A stretch of 11,466 nucleotides of DNA from Candidatus Omnitrophota bacterium (lineage in GTDB: Bacteria; Omnitrophota; Gorgyraeia; Zapsychrales; Fredricksoniimonadaceae). A program made the translations under genes and the position numbers. The notes beneath the pieces are model-generated. The model searched no databases, was not told the origin of the DNA, and saw only the letters and a list, made by a program, of their open reading frames with translations. The stretch covers positions 1 to 11,466 of the forward strand of contig JBAXBM010000050.1 of the NCBI GenBank assembly GCA_037141995.1. The letters are read 5' to 3'. Shown piece after piece: positions 2,172 to 9,095 of this stretch (its first letter is position 1; each line of letters opens with the position of its first letter).

Positions 2172-2990
2172 ATGAAAATCATTCATAATCTGGTGTACTT
2201 TTTTTTATCAATAGCCCTGGCACAGTTGTTAACGGGAATTTTCATCCCAGCCTGTATCATCCTTTCTATTTATCTTCGAATGAAGAAAGGGATATCTCTT
2301 AAGGAATTCTGGAAGCATGTCCCTAACATTTATGTTTCTATGATTTCGAGTATTTACCCGTTGGTATTTCTGGGATTTCCCGCCTTGCGCCTGATGGCCA
2401 AGAATGCCGGGAAAGGCTCAGGCGGAACGGCCCCTTTTATCATCGATACGGCGAAGCTTCAGCCCGGGGATGTGATCCTGACGGGCAAGGAGCGTACGGG
2501 TGCGATACAGCTGGCGAATATCCTGTCGGCGGGGATCGAGCATTGCCAGTGGACGCATGCGTGCATTTATATCGGTGATGAAAAGGTCATTGAGGCCCAG
2601 GCCAATGGCAAGGGTGTTATTCAGACCAATCTGCGCACATTTTACCTGGACCAGGGGTATCGCCTGAAAGTTTTAAGGCATAAGTTTCTGCCGGTAGACA
2701 AGATGTCCAAAGTGCTTGCCTATTGTGCCCAGGAGAAGGATAAGAATGCTTCTTACGATACCTGGGGCGTTTCCTTTTATGTCCTTGCCGCCATGATCCC
2801 GCCCATGTTCAGCGCCTGGCTTGACGGTGATTTCGCCGAGAAGTTCTTTGATGTCAGGGATGCTTACTTTTGCTCCGAACTTATTGCCGACGCTTTCAAA
2901 GCCGCTGACTGTGCCGTATTCGGCGAAAAAAGCTGGCGTGTTAAGCCTTTGGATTTCGCCTTTAATCCGGTGTTTCATGAGGTGGTGTGA
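2172..2990 (+). CDS. Membrane-anchored permuted papain-like (NlpC/P60-related) hydrolase, YaeF/YiiX family (Pfam PF05708-like)
   Basis: 272-codon ORF with a strong SD (AAGGAG just upstream of ATG 2172). Two N-terminal hydrophobic helices. Then LQPGDVILTG...WTHACIYIGDEKVIEAQ...ASYD...YFCSELIADAF: the His precedes the Cys and the CSEL motif is present, as in the permuted YiiX family. It lies only 41 nt after the AAA+ gene. Confidence 0.78.
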   Translation: MKIIHNLVYFFLSIALAQLLTGIFIPACIILSIYLRMKKGISLKEFWKHVPNIYVSMISSIYPLVFLGFPALRLMAKNAGKGSGGTAPFIIDTAKLQPGDVILTGKERTGAIQLANILSAGIEHCQWTHACIYIGDEKVIEAQANGKGVIQTNLRTFYLDQGYRLKVLRHKFLPVDKMSKVLAYCAQEKDKNASYDTWGVSFYVLAAMIPPMFSAWLDGDFAEKFFDVRDAYFCSELIADAFKAADCAVFGEKSWRVKPLDFAFNPVFHEVV

Positions 2991-3000
2991 GGCGGTGGGG

Positions 3001-3069
3001 ATGAAATATTTTCATGGTTTTCTGCTTTTTTATGTGGCATACTTGTTTCTGGTGGGTTTTATCCAATAG
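3001..3069 (+). promoter_or_regulatory. Conserved intergenic element, copy 1 (shared with 4750-4817); candidate promoter/leader of the SPFH gene pair
   Basis: 3003-3069 aligns with 4753-4817 at roughly 83% identity (hand alignment, one 1-nt indel). It contains an AT-rich hairpin/palindrome ATGAAA-TAT-TTTCAT (3001-3015), a T-rich tract, and TGGCATACTTGTTTCT (3035-3050), a partial match to the sigma54 -24/-12 consensus TGGCAC-N5-TTGCW. There are exactly 17 nt from the end of the element to the ATG in both copies. Confidence 0.5.
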
Positions 3070-3086
3070 ACCAAAAGGACAGATAT

Positions 3087-4067
3087 ATGCAGAATGAACA
3101 GGGATTGATCTTTAAAGGGATATATGAGTTTGAAGATCCGCTTGGCGTTCTTGTTGCCGCTAAGGTTCCGTCGGTTGGTACCTTGGATCTTTATTCCGGG
3201 ACGGCTGTTTTGGTCAAGGCCAATCAGTGCGCGCTGTTTATTTATAACGGCAAGATCGCCGATATTTTGATGCAGGGCTTGCACGAGGTCAAGACCGAGA
3301 ATTTTCCGCTTTTAACGCGGCTGGCCAACTGGCAGTTTGGGTTTGAAAGTCCTCTCCGGTGTGAGGTATGGTTTTTTTCTGGCGCTGTTTACACCAACAG
3401 GCGCTGGGGAACGTCTCAGCCAGTGATCTGTGATTTTCCGGATCACGGGATAGTGCCGGTGAGGGCGTACGGGATCTTTAATGTGGTCATGCGTGATCCC
3501 AATAAATTTTTTATGACGTTGATCGGGACGCGCAATGCGTACGATATAACTGAACTTGAGGGTCTGGTTCAGGCTCAGATCACGGAAATTCTTCCTGCGG
3601 CCATGCATGTTGTCCCGTCACTTCAGGACTTAAACAAGTCACAGACGCTGGTGGCAAAAGAACTGCAGGGGTTGGTCAATAAAACGATCGAGCAATACGG
3701 CATTGAAATTGTGAGCCTGCAGGTGATCTCGATGATCCCGTCGAAAGAGATCATGGAGGCGCTCGATGCCAAGGCGTCCATGAACATCATCGGCAATAAA
3801 CAGGAATATCTGCTTTATAAGGCGGCCAACAGCTTGATCGGGAGTCATGAGGGTGGTCATGCGAAAGGTTCCAGTGATTCCATGCAGTTGATGATGGGGT
3901 TGATGCTCGGGAAAAGCCTCCTGGATGCCAAGGAAAAAGAGCACACCATGCTGCTGAAAACAGAAGAAGCGCCTCCGATGATTGAAACAAGGTCATGTTC
4001 AAAATGTAAAGCTGTTGTCAAAGCCAGCGACAAGTTTTGTGCGTCCTGCGGAACGGAGCTGAAATGA
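3087..4067 (+). CDS. SPFH/Band-7 family protein with C-terminal zinc ribbon (COG4260, Pfam Band_7_1, B. subtilis YdjI-like)
   Basis: 326-codon ORF with SD AAGGA about 8 nt upstream. N-terminal pattern GTAVLVKANQCALFIYNGKIADILMQGLHEVKTENFPLL...GFESPLRCEVWFFS...VRAYGIFNVVMRDPNKFF is typical of the YdjI-like SPFH family. The C-terminus CSKCKAVVKASDKFCASCGTEL is a CxxC...CxxC zinc ribbon. Confidence 0.85.
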   Translation: MQNEQGLIFKGIYEFEDPLGVLVAAKVPSVGTLDLYSGTAVLVKANQCALFIYNGKIADILMQGLHEVKTENFPLLTRLANWQFGFESPLRCEVWFFSGAVYTNRRWGTSQPVICDFPDHGIVPVRAYGIFNVVMRDPNKFFMTLIGTRNAYDITELEGLVQAQITEILPAAMHVVPSLQDLNKSQTLVAKELQGLVNKTIEQYGIEIVSLQVISMIPSKEIMEALDAKASMNIIGNKQEYLLYKAANSLIGSHEGGHAKGSSDSMQLMMGLMLGKSLLDAKEKEHTMLLKTEEAPPMIETRSCSKCKAVVKASDKFCASCGTELK

Positions 4068-4738
4068 ACTTTGATATCATATGCCCCAATTGTGGTGCGG
4101 CATCTTCCATTGTGGTGGGTGTTTGCCCGTATTGCAAGACGGTCTTGTCTATTAATTCTGAGAAAGGGGATCATTCTCTGTCGGCGGTGAAAGCAGCCCA
4201 TGAAGCCGGAAAAACGGACAGGTCTCTGTCACTGGTGACGGCACTTGAACAGGAAAAGCCGGAGCTGCTGGATAATATTGAATTTGTTTTGTTGTATACC
4301 AGAATTCTTTTTGAAGTGGATGGGCCTTCCAGCAAGATCAAGTCTTTGCTGACCAAAGCCCTGATCCTGGCGCCCGGTCATCCTGATGTGTTGGAATATC
4401 TGGAAGTGATCGAGGCCGAGTCCATGATGACCCGGGAGCCCAATGATGAAGGTGAACAGCGTCTCATGCGACTCATTCGCCGCTCGCCCAATAATGTTTA
4501 TGCGTTGTTTTTCCTCGGGAGTCATTTGTTTTGGGTTCAAGGAAACGGTGGTGCTGCCCTGAAGTATCTTGAGCCGTGCGTCAGGTTGCGCCCTAATTTT
4601 ATACGGGCCAAGGCCTGTTTGGCGATGATCTACAAGGAATTAAACAAGCCGGATATGGCTAAAAGATTTTTTGATGAGTGTGCCGCCAGCACATCGAGCA
4701 ATAGGACGAAGTCATTTTTCAAAAGGCTTACGGATTGA
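4064..4738 (+). CDS. Zinc-ribbon plus TPR-repeat protein
   Basis: I place the start at ATG 4064, forming an ATGA overlap with the upstream stop (TGA 4065-4067). The ORF track's 4037 start would add 9 codons overlapping the SPFH gene. N-terminus CPNCG...CPYCKTVL is a zinc ribbon. The C-terminal half has TPR-like helical repeats (ALKYLEPCVRLRPNFIRAKACLAMIYKELNKPDMAKRFFDECA). Confidence 0.8.
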   Translation: MNFDIICPNCGAASSIVVGVCPYCKTVLSINSEKGDHSLSAVKAAHEAGKTDRSLSLVTALEQEKPELLDNIEFVLLYTRILFEVDGPSSKIKSLLTKALILAPGHPDVLEYLEVIEAESMMTREPNDEGEQRLMRLIRRSPNNVYALFFLGSHLFWVQGNGGAALKYLEPCVRLRPNFIRAKACLAMIYKELNKPDMAKRFFDECAASTSSNRTKSFFKRLTD

Positions 4739-4749
4739 TGCTCTAGCGG

Positions 4750-4817
4750 CCAAAATATTTTTTGGTTTTTTGCCTTTCTATATGGCATACTTCTTTCGGG
4801 TGGATTTTATTCAATAG
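4750..4817 (+). promoter_or_regulatory. Conserved intergenic element, copy 2; candidate promoter/leader of the 703-aa gene
   Basis: Homologous to 3003-3069. Hairpin/palindrome CCAAAA-TATT-TTTTGG (4750-4765), a T-rich tract, and TGGCATACTTCTTTCG (4783-4798). There are 17 nt from the terminal CAATAG to ATG 4835, the same as copy 1. Confidence 0.5.
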
Positions 4818-4834
4818 TCTTAAGGGGGTTAAAG

Positions 4835-6946
4835 ATGTTGGAAAAACTGTATTCATTTGCCGGATTCCGGAAATTGATTTGTTGGTTGATGGCTGTTGTT
4901 TTTTTGACGGGATCAGTGATGCCCTTATATGCGCAGGGTGTGGCCGGCCTTTCATCTTCCGGGATGATGAACGTAAGCCGGACATTCACGCCGCCGATTG
5001 TCAGGGGGATGACGATTGATCCCAAGGATCCGTTTGCTTTTAAGTTTCTGATGGACCGCGGGGATGACAAGGGGTTGTCCCTGGAGGCTCGGACGGCAGT
5101 TTATGAGAAGTTGATCAAATATTTCATGGCGTCATTGGCGGTGCCGGAAGAAGATGTCTGGGTCAACCTTTCTCCCTATGAAGGGGATCGTTTGATCGCA
5201 GATAATTTTGGCATGACCGTTATGGGGCGCGACCTTCTGGAAATGGATTATGCGTTAAAGCGTGTCACGGCATCGTTATTTCATCCTGATCAGGAGCCGG
5301 GGAAGGCGTTCTGGAAGAAGGTTTATCAGGCGGCCTATGAACGTTATGGGACAACGGATGTGCCGGTCGATACGTTCAACAAGGTCTGGATCGTTCCGAG
5401 TGAGGCAAAGGTTTATGAGGACGGCAATTCTGTTATTCTGGTGAAAAGCCATCTCAAGGTCATGCTGGAGCAGGATTATTTGGCGCAGAAAAAGAATGCC
5501 GCGGTACACCCCGATAACAAGAATGATAAAGATTCCCAGTTTTCCCGCGATATTGTGCGTGAAGTCATGATTCCTATTCTTGAAAAAGAAGTCAATGACG
5601 GCGAAAATTTTGCAGTGTTACGTCAGATCACCGCATCGCTGATCCTTGCCACCTGGTATAAGAAAGCCTGGAAAGATGTTTTGTTGAACCAGGGATATAC
5701 GGATCATTCCAAGGTCAAAGGCGTTGACCAGGATCCTGCTAATAACCAGATTATCTACAACCAATATGTGGAAGCATTCAAGCAGGGCGCTGTGAATCTG
5801 GTCCGTGAAGAATATGATACGTTATCGCAGGAAATGATGCCACGGAAATATTTCTCCGGCGGTTACGGCACAAAGATGACAACAGATGATGGGCAGACAA
5901 CGTCTTTACAGCAACGATTAGAAGAAGTATCTCAGTCGCCGATGTTGGATCCAAAGAAAACGGAGTTGGTGGCGGCGTCTTTGATGCCAACGGCAAGAAC
6001 AACAGTTGCCGGGTTATTCCGACCTGTTTCACGCTTGGCGCTTCTTATTGTGTTGTGGACAGGGGCTTTCTTTCAACCAACGACAGCGGCTTTAGCAGAA
6101 TATAGAAGTACACAAAGTTTTACATATACGAACGGTTCTAGAACTCAAAAAATGGAGTTGATTGTTACTGATCCTGGCGTTGTTGTGACAGATGTGTGGG
6201 ATACTCAATCAAAGATGCTACGTGATTTCACGGATACTGTAAATACAGTAATTATAATGTCTAGGAGTAATGAGTTAGGGGCCTTAGATACACTTGGGAA
6301 GCTTGAAGCAAGAGTCAAAGCAGGGAAGGCCTCAGAAGAGGCGATATTGAAGGGGTTGGTTCAAAAGCAATTTGTTGCTTTATTAATGAATGGGAAAAAG
6401 CCTGTTGATATATCTCCGTTTCTTCAAGCGTATACTGATTGTTTGCAAGAGATAGGGCGGGTACGAAAGACTATAGACAACAATAATAAGATACGGGCTT
6501 ATAATGAAGCTGTGGAGCAGAATAATGCTAAAGCACGAGAATTCAATAAAAATCAAGCGAAGTATTCCTCTGTTGTGAAGGGGTATGTTGAGATTTTTAA
6601 TAAGAAGCAACGTGACCCAGTAGAAATGAAAAAATTATCGGTAAGCATAGGTCAACTTCTTGCGCAACCAGATTTGCCTTCAAATTTCAGGGCAACTCTT
6701 CAGCAAATTAAAACATGGATAGATAAGGCGGAGAATGTAAAGAAACCAAAGCTTGTGACAGATAAGAATCTTGGTGGTATTGATTTGAATGCCAATTCTT
6801 TTAACCTTGAGGTTGAATCGCGTAAGGAAGCCAGGGGCTTGGTGTCTCCTGTTTTGGTTGATCTTGTTGCCCTTGAAGGCTTGAGCCCACGGATATTGTC
6901 CGTCACGTCCGCCAGTGAATATGTAAAGATGTTTTCAGGAAAGTAA
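4835..6946 (+). CDS. Large secreted or membrane-associated protein of unknown function, with an N-terminal signal peptide and an internal hydrophobic segment
   Basis: 703-codon ORF with SD AAGGGGG 6-7 nt upstream. The N-terminus MLEKLYSFAGFRKLICWLMAVVFLTGSVMPLYAQG looks like a Sec signal peptide. A second signal-peptide-like segment lies at aa 384-421. The C-terminal third is Lys/Asn/Gln-rich and looks coiled-coil-like. No family recognised. Confidence 0.8.
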   Translation: MLEKLYSFAGFRKLICWLMAVVFLTGSVMPLYAQGVAGLSSSGMMNVSRTFTPPIVRGMTIDPKDPFAFKFLMDRGDDKGLSLEARTAVYEKLIKYFMASLAVPEEDVWVNLSPYEGDRLIADNFGMTVMGRDLLEMDYALKRVTASLFHPDQEPGKAFWKKVYQAAYERYGTTDVPVDTFNKVWIVPSEAKVYEDGNSVILVKSHLKVMLEQDYLAQKKNAAVHPDNKNDKDSQFSRDIVREVMIPILEKEVNDGENFAVLRQITASLILATWYKKAWKDVLLNQGYTDHSKVKGVDQDPANNQIIYNQYVEAFKQGAVNLVREEYDTLSQEMMPRKYFSGGYGTKMTTDDGQTTSLQQRLEEVSQSPMLDPKKTELVAASLMPTARTTVAGLFRPVSRLALLIVLWTGAFFQPTTAALAEYRSTQSFTYTNGSRTQKMELIVTDPGVVVTDVWDTQSKMLRDFTDTVNTVIIMSRSNELGALDTLGKLEARVKAGKASEEAILKGLVQKQFVALLMNGKKPVDISPFLQAYTDCLQEIGRVRKTIDNNNKIRAYNEAVEQNNAKAREFNKNQAKYSSVVKGYVEIFNKKQRDPVEMKKLSVSIGQLLAQPDLPSNFRATLQQIKTWIDKAENVKKPKLVTDKNLGGIDLNANSFNLEVESRKEARGLVSPVLVDLVALEGLSPRILSVTSASEYVKMFSGK

Positions 6947-6999: not shown

Positions 7000-7052
7000 G
7001 GCGCTGTTCAGGCGGGATTAATGGCTGGCGGCGCTATGAGAAAATCGTAGAT

Positions 7053-7181
7053 GTTTAGCGCCTTGTGTGCTCGCCGCGCCGAGCGCCGAGTGCTTTTTCG
7101 CCTGGAACGAGGGGGTTTATCCCCCGAGAGAAGCCGAAAGAGTGGCGCGGTATGGCAGGCGAGAAATCGAATGCGCTAAAC
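7053..7181 (+). repeat. 129-nt structured intergenic element, copy A (candidate cis-regulatory or REP-like structured RNA; family not recognised)
   Basis: About 82% identical to 8965-9095. Five nested stems: P1 7053-7061/7173-7181, P2 7070-7075/7158-7163, P3 7076-7080/7144-7148, P4 7093-7100/7135-7142, P5 7111-7115/7121-7125. Four compensatory changes relative to copy B. Confidence 0.7.
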
Positions 7182-8960
7182 ATGCATAAAAAAACTTCGT
7201 TTCTTCCCATGTATCTTGATGAGATGGCGGCTCGGGGGTGGGGTGAGCTGGACGTTATTATCATCAGCGGCGATGCGTATGTGGATCATCCTTCCTACGG
7301 CACGGCATTGATCGGGCGTCTCCTGGAAAGCAAGGGTTATCGCGTGGGTATTATCGCCCAGCCGGACTGGCGGTCGCTGGATGATTTTACGCGCCTGGGG
7401 CGTCCGCGTTTGTGCGTTTGTGTGACGGCGGGCAATGTGGATTCCATGGTTGCCCATTACACGGCCAACAAGCGGCGGCGGCAGGGGGATGATTTTGCGC
7501 CGGGCGGCAAGGACGGCTTGAGGCCGGATCGTGCGGCGATTGTGTATGCTAATCGTGCTAAGGCGGCATTCAAGGGCCTGCCGGTGATCCTGGGCGGTGT
7601 TGAGGCCAGCATGCGGCGCTTGGCGCATTACGATTACTGGGATGATGCGGTGCGGCGTTCGGTATTGATCGATGCCAAGGCGGACATGATCATTTACGGC
7701 ATGGCAGAGCGGCCTGTTGTGGAAGTGATGGCGCGGCTGGCGCAGGGTGAGGCGATCGCAGCGATCCGTGATGTGCGCGGCACCGTGGTGCGTGTGAAGC
7801 CGGCGGAATTTCCTGCGGGGACGATAGAATTGCCGTCGTTTGAAGATATCAGCCGTGACCCTGAAATTTTTAACCAGGCATTTCGCCTGGCTTATGCGGA
7901 AATGTCGCCGGAAGACGGCAAGCCTTTGGCCCAGCGGCATGCGGATCAGTGTGTGCTGCAATTGCCCCCGGCATTGCCATTGACACCTCAAGAACTTGAC
8001 GCCGGTTATGATCTGGCGTATGCGCGCACATGGCATCCGTCGTATGATGCCTTGGGCGGCGTGAAGGGTTTAGAGACAGTGCGCTGGTCGATCACAGCGG
8101 TGCGCGGCTGTCCCGGGGAGTGTCATTTTTGCGGGATCACGTTCCATCAGGGGCGGATCGTGCAGAGCCGGAGCGTGGCGTCCATTGTGCGGGAAGCTGA
8201 AGGCCTCGCGCGCGACCCGGCGTTTCGGGGGACGATTCAGGATGTGGGCGGGCCGACAGCGAATTTATACGGTGCCAGTTGTGCCAATTGGAATAAAGGC
8301 CGGGTATGCCGCGGCAAGCAGTGCCTGATGCCATCGAAATGCCCGTCGCTGGATCTGGGGTGCCGGGAAGCGGTTTCCTTGTATGAAGCGATACGGCGTG
8401 TGCCGGGCATAAAACATATGTTCGTGCAGAGCGGTTTGAGGTATGATCTCTTGCTCGAACCGGCGGCGCTCGATTATTTCAAGGTGTTATGCCGTTATCA
8501 TGTCAGCGGGCAGATGAAGGTGGCTCCCGAGCATACATCCGACGAGGTTTTAGCGCTCATGAACAAGCCGCCCTATGCGCGGTATGAGGCTTTTGTCCGG
8601 CTTTTCAATGAGATCAATGCGGGGCTTGGCAAGAAGCAGTTTCTGGTGAATTATTTTGTCAGCGCGCATCCCGGGGCAGGGCTTAAGGAAGCGTTTGATT
8701 GTGCGTCAATGCTTTTATCCCGCGGGATGCATCCGGAACAGGTGCAAGATTTTCTGCCTTTACCCATGACGGTATCGGCGTGCATGTATCACACGGGGAA
8801 GCATCCTCTGACGGGCAAGAGTGTTTATGTGCCGCGGAAAGACAATGAACGCGCGATGCAGAGGGCCCTTGTGCAGTCGCAGAATCCTGGTAATGCGCCC
8901 TTGATTGACAAGGCGCTTAATATTTTAGGTAAACAGGGAGTTAAGAAAAAATTTAAATAA
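7182..8960 (+). CDS. ygiQ: YgiQ-family radical SAM protein (UPF0313)
   Basis: The N-terminus KTSFLPMYLDEMAARGWGELDVIIISGDAYVDHPSYGTALIGRLLESKGYRVGIIAQPDW closely parallels E. coli YgiQ (FLPMSREEMDQLGW...VTGDAYVDHPSFG...RVGIIAQPDW). Radical SAM CxxxCxxC motif CPGECHFC at 8109-8132. The start is uncertain. The ORF track begins at 7065, but codons 1-39 are a read-through of the repeat element. ATG 7182 is the first Met after it, and ATG 7152 is an alternative. Confidence 0.88.
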   Translation: MHKKTSFLPMYLDEMAARGWGELDVIIISGDAYVDHPSYGTALIGRLLESKGYRVGIIAQPDWRSLDDFTRLGRPRLCVCVTAGNVDSMVAHYTANKRRRQGDDFAPGGKDGLRPDRAAIVYANRAKAAFKGLPVILGGVEASMRRLAHYDYWDDAVRRSVLIDAKADMIIYGMAERPVVEVMARLAQGEAIAAIRDVRGTVVRVKPAEFPAGTIELPSFEDISRDPEIFNQAFRLAYAEMSPEDGKPLAQRHADQCVLQLPPALPLTPQELDAGYDLAYARTWHPSYDALGGVKGLETVRWSITAVRGCPGECHFCGITFHQGRIVQSRSVASIVREAEGLARDPAFRGTIQDVGGPTANLYGASCANWNKGRVCRGKQCLMPSKCPSLDLGCREAVSLYEAIRRVPGIKHMFVQSGLRYDLLLEPAALDYFKVLCRYHVSGQMKVAPEHTSDEVLALMNKPPYARYEAFVRLFNEINAGLGKKQFLVNYFVSAHPGAGLKEAFDCASMLLSRGMHPEQVQDFLPLPMTVSACMYHTGKHPLTGKSVYVPRKDNERAMQRALVQSQNPGNAPLIDKALNILGKQGVKKKFK

Positions 8961-8964
8961 TGGT

Positions 8965-9095
8965 ATTCAGCGCCCTGTGTTTTCGCCGCGCCAAGCGCCG
9001 AGTGCCTTTCCGCCTGGAACGAGGGGGCCGCAGCCCCCGAGAGAAGCCGGAAGGGTGGCGCGATAAGGCAGGCGAAAAGATCTGATGCGCTGAAC
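8965..9095 (+). repeat. 129-131-nt structured intergenic element, copy B
   Basis: Same architecture as copy A: P1 8966-8973/9087-9094, P2 8980-8987/9071-9078, P3 8988-8992/9057-9061, P4 9005-9012/9048-9055, P5 9023-9027/9034-9038. It starts 5 nt after the ygiQ stop and ends 31 nt before the ABC-F start. Confidence 0.7.

Follow-up and report, generated by a model that had tools for sequence, protein, structure and literature searches.

The window analysed here is an entire contig of 11,466 nt (JBAXBM010000050.1) from a metagenome-assembled genome (MAG) of a Candidatus Omnitrophota bacterium (locus tags WCI27_), and the subject of this report is a run of four same-strand genes within it, which encode a YiiX-like hydrolase, an SPFH protein ending in a zinc ribbon, a protein in which a zinc ribbon is joined to TPR repeats (ZnR-TPR) and a protein of 703 aa. 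A first-pass annotation of the sequence had regarded these four genes as one membrane-associated module. Comparison with related loci makes it probable, instead, that the region consists of three juxtaposed units, namely an upstream ATPase gene together with the hydrolase gene, an SPFH-TPR operon, and one member of a 703-aa protein family, with a putative promoter/leader repeat duplicated among them, and that it does not represent one system. The unit which should replace the "four-gene system" is a predicted two-gene, translationally coupled operon of a putatively cytosolic SPFH protein of the YdjI/SamI type and its ZnR-TPR partner; this pair is found across at least two phyla and occurs without PspA. 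The relevant features, all on the forward strand, are as follows.

934-2130, + strand: gene for an ATPase with AAA_14 and DUF4143 domains (Pfam PF13173 and PF13635), followed by a gap of 41 nt.
2172-2990, + strand: gene for the YiiX/C92-like hydrolase (PF05708), followed by a gap of 96 nt.
3010-3078, + strand: repeat copy 1, before the SPFH gene.
3087-4067, + strand: SPFH gene with C-terminal zinc ribbon (PF13421, PF13248), joined to the next gene by a -4 nt (ATGA) junction.
4064-4738, + strand: zinc-ribbon/TPR gene (TPR and zinc-ribbon Pfam matches), followed by a gap of 96 nt.
4758-4826, + strand: repeat copy 2, before the 703-aa gene.
4835-6946, + strand: gene for the 703-aa protein, without a Pfam match.

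The open reading frames (ORFs) and the gaps of 41, 96, -4 and 96 nt reported in the first-pass annotation agree exactly with the ORF map, and its domain assignments were upheld by Pfam and NCBIfam scans, the latter of which returned nothing specific for the window proteins beyond what Pfam provides.

Loci around SPFH homologues (six assembly contexts and 39 metagenome loci, referred to by L numbers where they have to be told apart) were searched by tblastn with every protein of the window. The DNA extends past the SPFH gene in 43 of them (L016 and L040 stop at that gene), and in all 43 the TPR gene lies immediately downstream, so that the pairing noticed in the window is a conserved one. L050, a degraded remnant, is counted among them; the remaining 42, whose junction is intact, fall into 34 groups at 95% nucleotide identity. 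The two genes overlap by ATGA at 37 of 41 junctions (the window included), the others having a distance of -1 or 0 nt. The SPFH homologues are full-length, 45–74% identical, and come from Omnitrophota, from the cultivated Bdellovibrio sp. HCB337 (CP178621.1), which carries the pair, and from Pseudomonadota MAGs. In at least 34 distinct genomic backgrounds, then, the two genes are passed on together, along with a promoter-like site of their own. Searches of the literature on operons of SPFH, zinc-ribbon and TPR genes and on PF13421 gave no description of the pair.

The surroundings of the pair, by contrast with the pair itself, vary. Flanking genes encode, among others, an integrase, HepT/MNT, LemA, exonuclease VII, MdoG and various housekeeping proteins, and ORF clustering recovered no third conserved neighbour. 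Homologues of the YiiX-like protein, of the 703 family (searched with its N-terminal part, N703, and its C-terminal part, C703) and of the AAA/DUF4143 ATPase gave zero tblastn matches in about 137 kb upstream and about 117 kb downstream of the pairs, which means that none of the three is a neighbour in any of the 43 SPFH loci. The converse holds as well: SPFH is found in none of the four YiiX-like contexts (L006, L007, L008, L060) and in none of the three 703-family contexts (three IMG/VR loci), while scans of IMG/VR for relatives of the YiiX-like protein and of N703 found few contigs, none linked to SPFH. The closest homologue of the 703-aa protein (66% identity over the N-terminal 60%) is surrounded by secretin and two-component genes. 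The homologues are thus scattered independently of one another, and the claim that the four genes make up one module is not borne out by this neighbourhood check; likewise, the proposal that an enzymatic effector is organised by the SPFH scaffold finds no comparative support. The ATPase gene lies outside the conserved SPFH-TPR unit, and it and the YiiX-like hydrolase gene are unrelated neighbours of the pair.

Two departures from the usual layout of the pair were seen. At L050:8001-8482 a degraded remnant has SPFH residues 182-257 fused into residues 116-223 of the TPR partner, apparently by a deletion spanning the gene junction. In one Omnitrophota lineage a LemA gene and a TPR/GIDE-like gene precede the pair (L003:4684-6887, L004:2-1125), an arrangement which, according to the ORF clustering, is not conserved at the other pair loci. 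LemA-type genes often accompany genes for TPM-domain proteins, which recalls YdjH of Bacillus subtilis, a component of the system compared at the end of this report.

The SPFH protein matches PF13421 (Band_7_1) with 153.6 bits (cut-off 24, E 7.5e-45) over profile positions 13-210 of 211, and a PF13248 match marks its C-terminal C4 zinc ribbon. In 40 homologues the ribbon cysteines C304, C307, C318 and C321 (CxxC...FCxxCG) are invariant, as are M269, G271, M273, L274 and G275, residues of a Met/Gly-rich segment which reads MQLMMGLMLGK in the window protein and MQxMMGLMLGK in its conserved form. A search of the PDB with the SPFH profile retrieved QmcA alone, and weakly. The TPR partner begins with a C4 zinc ribbon of the invariant pattern M.F...C..CGA.S....G.CP.CK (M1, F3, C7, C10, C21 and C24 do not vary) and continues with TPR repeats that carry the motifs RRSP.N and LG.H..W; its profile matches just generic TPR structures. 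The SPFH kinship with the YdjI type, a cytosolic SPFH protein with a C-terminal zinc finger, had been recognised in the first reading and agrees with published work (PMC8581546), the basis here being a common Pfam family and a common architecture. Where that reading had placed every one of the four products at or beyond the membrane, only half of the statement can be kept: hydropathy analysis finds an N-terminal hydrophobic segment in the YiiX-like and the 703-aa proteins, and none in the SPFH protein (maximum 19-residue hydropathy 1.17) or in the TPR protein.

What does connect two of the three units is the repeat. Copies 1 (3010-3078) and 2 (4758-4826) are identical at 55 of 69 positions without a gap, slightly longer than the approximately 65 nt recognised originally, and stand in identical register both to the ATG downstream and to the TGA stop which precedes each. 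Among the 6.4e7 pairs of 69-mers in the window, at least 50 matches are reached only by this pair and by an intergenic repeat starting at 7047 and 8959. Copy 2 contains a -35 element TTGGTT (4762-4767), a spacer of 18 nt, a TGn motif (TGG) and a -10 element CATACT (4786-4791); copy 1 contains a -35-like ATGGTT (3014-3019), the same 18-nt spacer, TGG (3035-3037) and CATACT (3038-3043), and a Shine-Dalgarno sequence AAAGGA (3074-3079), with a leader of about 30 nt common to both copies. Upstream of orthologous SPFH genes (L002, L003, L014, L016, L018, L019, L023, L026) the same architecture recurs as TTG(G/A)nn, 17–18 nt, and TGnTATAnT, located 35–60 nt before the ATG. The repeat is therefore best read as a putative sigma-70 promoter of the extended -10 type plus a leader of about 30 nt. 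When anchored on the -10 element, the two copies share 27 of 33 nt upstream and 25 of 33 nt downstream; unrelated Omnitrophota promoters share on average 16 of 33 and 11 of 33, respectively, and only pairs of orthologous leaders approach the values of the two copies. Because this identity exceeds that between unrelated promoters, the copies are taken to be homologous, that is, a duplicated promoter with its leader, and not merely two instances of a common consensus. Copy 1 would then occupy the ancestral promoter position of the pair and copy 2 would have arisen before the 703-aa gene by local duplication or by gene conversion. The link thereby created between the pair and the 703-aa gene is genuine, local and lineage-specific. 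With a promoter and leader duplicated in this manner, a common input probably acts on both the pair and the 703-aa gene in this genome, and the earlier idea that the two share their regulation is plausible.

Among the other readings of the repeat, the one that survives best holds that it is one of many dispersed copies of an element (the operator or box of a regulon, a sequence resembling a miniature inverted-repeat transposable element (MITE), or a cassette boundary), in which case it would have little bearing on a link between the two units. It is lent some colour by the second, unrelated intergenic repeat pair, which demonstrates that the genome does carry repeated intergenic elements, and by a small imperfect inverted repeat in the leader, TGG(G/A)T-TTT-AT(C/T)CA. 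However, when 185,579 species-representative genomes (the source MAG and its close relatives not among them) were scanned for the exact pattern, five hits were obtained, in Bacteroidota and Bacillota, where about four are expected by chance (2 x 596e9 / 4^19), and viral contigs gave zero; furthermore, the element has neither terminal inverted repeats nor a strong fold, and copy 1 occupies the orthologous promoter position, so a dispersed element is considered unlikely. Even less probable is a sigma-54 (-24/-12) promoter of the form TGGCAT-N5-TTTC, which would subject both units to control by an enhancer-binding protein: both copies do have TGGCA with GG at the correct spacing, but their -12 element is TTTC and not TTGC, and at the orthologous position the GG is lost (TGCTAT or TGTTAT in L002, L014 and L018) while TGn, TATAnT and the upstream TTG at 17–18 nt are kept; nor did Pfam reveal an enhancer-binding-protein gene in the window.

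Further candidates for the repeat were rejected. Rfam 15 gave no match anywhere in the window at E <= 1, which speaks against a catalogued cis-regulatory RNA, and the fold z-scores of both copies, taken whole or as leader only, range from -0.3 to +0.5 and give no sign of a structured RNA. A terminator was discarded since neither of the two 96-nt gaps holds a terminator-like site. A small ORF of 22 codons is present in copy 1 (ATG 3001 to TAG 3069); copy 2 has no start at this place, four of the five differences in the 12 common codons alter the amino acid, and the ORF lies upstream of the predicted start site.

Returning to the run of four genes as a whole, they could be argued to act as a single module in envelope stress, in remodelling or in defence, with the SPFH protein as the scaffold that organises both the YiiX-like hydrolase and a secreted 703-aa protein. 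Their common strand and short gaps, the lack of a terminator-like site in the gaps and the promoter/leader that ties SPFH-TPR to the 703-aa gene would fit such a module, as would the gene directly upstream, a PADLOC candidate (PDC-S01), and the fact that the closest YiiX-like homologue adjoins a methyltransferase and a ResIII helicase. Given, however, that the components never co-occur in the 43 SPFH loci, the four YiiX-like and the three 703-family contexts, that the neighbours of the pair are as variable as described, and that a search of PADLOC-DB 2.0 at E <= 0.01 gave a match for the upstream ATPase only and for none of the four, this is the least credible of the readings considered and is put aside in favour of three juxtaposed units.

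Several points nevertheless weigh against the three-unit reading and its promoter. With no terminator-like site in the 96-nt gaps, read-through across all four genes is possible, and so is the existence of the four-gene arrangement in very close relatives, as the closest SPFH relatives found are just 74% identical; the sample for linkage is small, comprising four YiiX-like and three 703-family contexts. As regards the promoter, the -35 element of copy 1 is not TTGGTT, both CATACT sequences agree with the -10 consensus at just four of six positions, A2 and T6 among them, a sigma-70 scan of the window called neither copy, and more copies of the element may be present elsewhere in the source genome. 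From its motifs we infer the promoter function of the repeat, and from the analogy with SamI/YdjI we infer complex formation and membrane association of the pair's products.

The 703-aa protein belongs to a large, Omnitrophota-specific and so far unannotated family. It has zero matches in Pfam, NCBIfam, PADLOC and PHROG. Its layout comprises an N-terminal hydrophobic signal or anchor (approximately residues 14-32), a conserved N-domain (approximately 11-343), a helical, variable middle part (448-634) and a tail with the motif GGID (approximately 645-703). The N-domain (residues 11-343) is always N-terminal and is shared, at about 50% identity, by thousands of Omnitrophota proteins; it has no fold match, and a PDB sequence search with the 703-aa protein gave nothing meaningful. 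A full HMMER scan found 7,786 representatives of 50%-identity clusters at E <= 1e-3 and 6,018 at E <= 1e-30. The proteins are 300–2,300 aa long, with several members per MAG as judged from locus tags, and their C-terminal tail follows the consensus GGIDLN...G..P, with a conservation of at least 90% at G647, G648, I649, D650, G682 and P685. Between the two ends a diverse cargo is found: hexokinase, PGI, UDPGP, PPDK, radical SAM, adenosine deaminase, methyltransferases, NUDIX, GH26, Fic, AvrB/AvrC and HEAT, and in addition receiver (response regulator), glycosyltransferase and WD40 domains. The function of the family can be suggested from this architecture: it may help explain how enzymes are deployed at or beyond the envelope in these ultra-small, possibly host-dependent bacteria, and it constitutes the most promising lead to come from the window.

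A preprint on Omnitrophota describes multi-enzyme membrane proteins, long to giant in size, which, in the passages searched, have similar cargo repertoires and an N-terminal signal or transmembrane (TM) segment (bioRxiv 10.64898/2026.06.07.730766). The 703 family shares with these proteins the phylum, the N-terminal signal/TM segment and part of the cargo (methyltransferase, radical SAM, response regulator, glycosyltransferase and sugar-phosphate enzymes); it differs in its length of 300–2,300 aa and in being defined by one N-domain plus the GGID tail, and no description of this N-domain is contained in the passages searched (bioRxiv 10.64898/2026.06.07.730766).

The leftmost of the three units consists of the ATPase gene and the YiiX-like gene, which are 41 nt apart and may be co-transcribed; a promoter-like sequence, TTGACA-16-TAAATT, lies at 828-855, upstream of the ATPase gene. 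The ATPase (934-2130) matches the PADLOC candidate single-gene system PDC-S01 with an E value of 4e-151, and its C-terminus gives weak PD-(D/E)XK/Csx1-like matches. A second DUF4143 ATPase gene is located at the right end of the contig (10750-11466, - strand), in opposite orientation to the first; the two proteins are distantly related (26% identity over 149 aa), that of 934-2130 being the complete one.

The product of 2172-2990 is predicted to be a membrane-anchored, permuted papain-like hydrolase (YiiX/YaeF, C92) in which the catalytic His, Glu and Cys are kept: H129, E141 and C234 are invariant across 26 homologues, which are all that were found of this rare family, and the N-terminal hydrophobic segment covers residues 7-25. 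With the YiiX/YaeF (Peptidase_C92) amidases it shares a PF05708 score above the gathering threshold (37.1 bits, cut-off 27) and the order of His before Cys that marks the permuted NlpC/P60 fold. It differs from them in that the match is confined to the N-terminal half of the profile (positions 2-90 of 166), in scoring far below the YaeF equivalog NF008552 (36 bits, cut-off 279), in its predicted N-terminal membrane anchor and in the rarity of its family. A PDB sequence search gave nothing meaningful. The closest homologue is encoded directly after the genes for an N6/N4 methyltransferase and a ResIII/SNF2 helicase; in the other contexts examined the gene stands among unrelated genes. The protein also matches the phage family phrog_1128 (E 3.9e-12), whose enoyl-CoA hydratase-like annotation is probably wrong.

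As for base composition, the four genes had been described as lying in lower-GC sequence next to higher-GC housekeeping genes, which is a weak claim: their G+C content of 0.48–0.49 is that of the contig as a whole (0.485), with 0.55–0.60 at third codon positions, as compared to 0.567 for the neighbouring YgiQ gene and 0.516 for the ABC-F gene. Clearly low values are found only where the 703-aa gene encodes its C-terminal half (0.415) and in the two leftmost genes of the window.

The second intergenic repeat concerns the YgiQ and ABC-F genes. It is about 130 nt long, G+C-rich and 89% identical between its copies, one of which (7047-7176) belongs to the leader of YgiQ, a radical-SAM gene, and the other (8959-9089) separates YgiQ from the ABC-F gene. 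For each copy a single long hairpin is predicted, of -62 and -69 kcal/mol (z -4.0 and -4.4), respectively, with at least four compensatory differences between them, the + strand being stabler than the - strand, and Rfam gave no match; it may be a palindrome of the repetitive extragenic palindromic (REP) or MITE type, or a structured leader RNA. The longest ORF of YgiQ begins with GTG at 7065 and the family domain only at residue 46; because the repeat element spans 7047-7176, the start is more likely the ATG at 7182 (MHKKTSFLPM...).

With respect to the conserved pair itself, translational coupling would lead to the SPFH and ZnR-TPR proteins being made in a fixed ratio and, presumably, forming a complex. 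By analogy with SamI/YdjI, the SPFH protein would form an oligomer on the inner side of the membrane, for which the ZnR-TPR protein could serve as adaptor or recruiter. More far-reaching and rather doubtful are two conjectures. One would make the pair an undescribed, self-contained membrane-surveillance or adaptor system that dispenses with PspA. The other would make the N-domain and GGID tail of the 703 family, spread through the whole phylum, a targeting, display or export unit for diverse cargo; the copied promoter would then be the means by which one family member came under the envelope signal of the pair.

Two characterised systems lend themselves to comparison with the pair. LapB (YciM) of E. 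coli, in which an N-terminal TM segment and TPR repeats are followed by a C4 zinc domain of the rubredoxin type, works beside an SPFH assembly (FtsH-HflK/C) at the inner membrane. The ZnR-TPR protein resembles it in combining TPR repeats with a C4 zinc domain near an SPFH protein, and in 13 of 24 members its ribbon shows a weak similarity to PF18073 (Zn_ribbon_LapB), with a best E of 1.5e-4. The matches are, however, under the Pfam and NCBIfam cut-offs (18.3 bits for the LapB equivalog NF008756, cut-off 474), the zinc ribbon is N-terminal in the partner and C-terminal in LapB, the partner has no TM helix, and no FtsH gene is linked; the resemblance is a lead only.

Closer is the pspA-ydjGHI (samGHI) operon of B. 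subtilis. There, SamI (YdjI) reaches the membrane only together with the membrane proteins YdjG and YdjH, and then recruits PspA (PMC8581546; bioRxiv 10.64898/2026.02.06.704340); YdjG combines two zinc ribbons with an NTF2-like domain and a TM segment, and YdjH contains a TPM domain (bioRxiv 10.1101/2020.09.24.301986). Common to both systems is a Band_7_1 SPFH protein of about 325 aa which is anchorless, contains a stretch that is of low complexity or rich in Met and Gly, and ends in a zinc ribbon (PMC8581546), as well as an operon partner that starts with a zinc ribbon, the YdjG primer encoding MIISYKCPNC (PMC8581546) and the window partner beginning with MNFDIICPNC. In contrast, the window lacks pspA and a TPM-domain YdjH (Pfam found neither a PspA nor a TPM domain there, and none is recorded in five Pfam-annotated pair loci); the partner is a predicted soluble protein of zinc ribbon and TPR repeats, where YdjG has a TM segment besides its two ribbons and NTF2-like domain; and its gene lies downstream of SPFH and is translationally coupled to it, while that of YdjG lies upstream. 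This comparison suggests that what is portable in membrane systems of this kind is the core formed by an SPFH protein and a zinc-ribbon partner, and not PspA.

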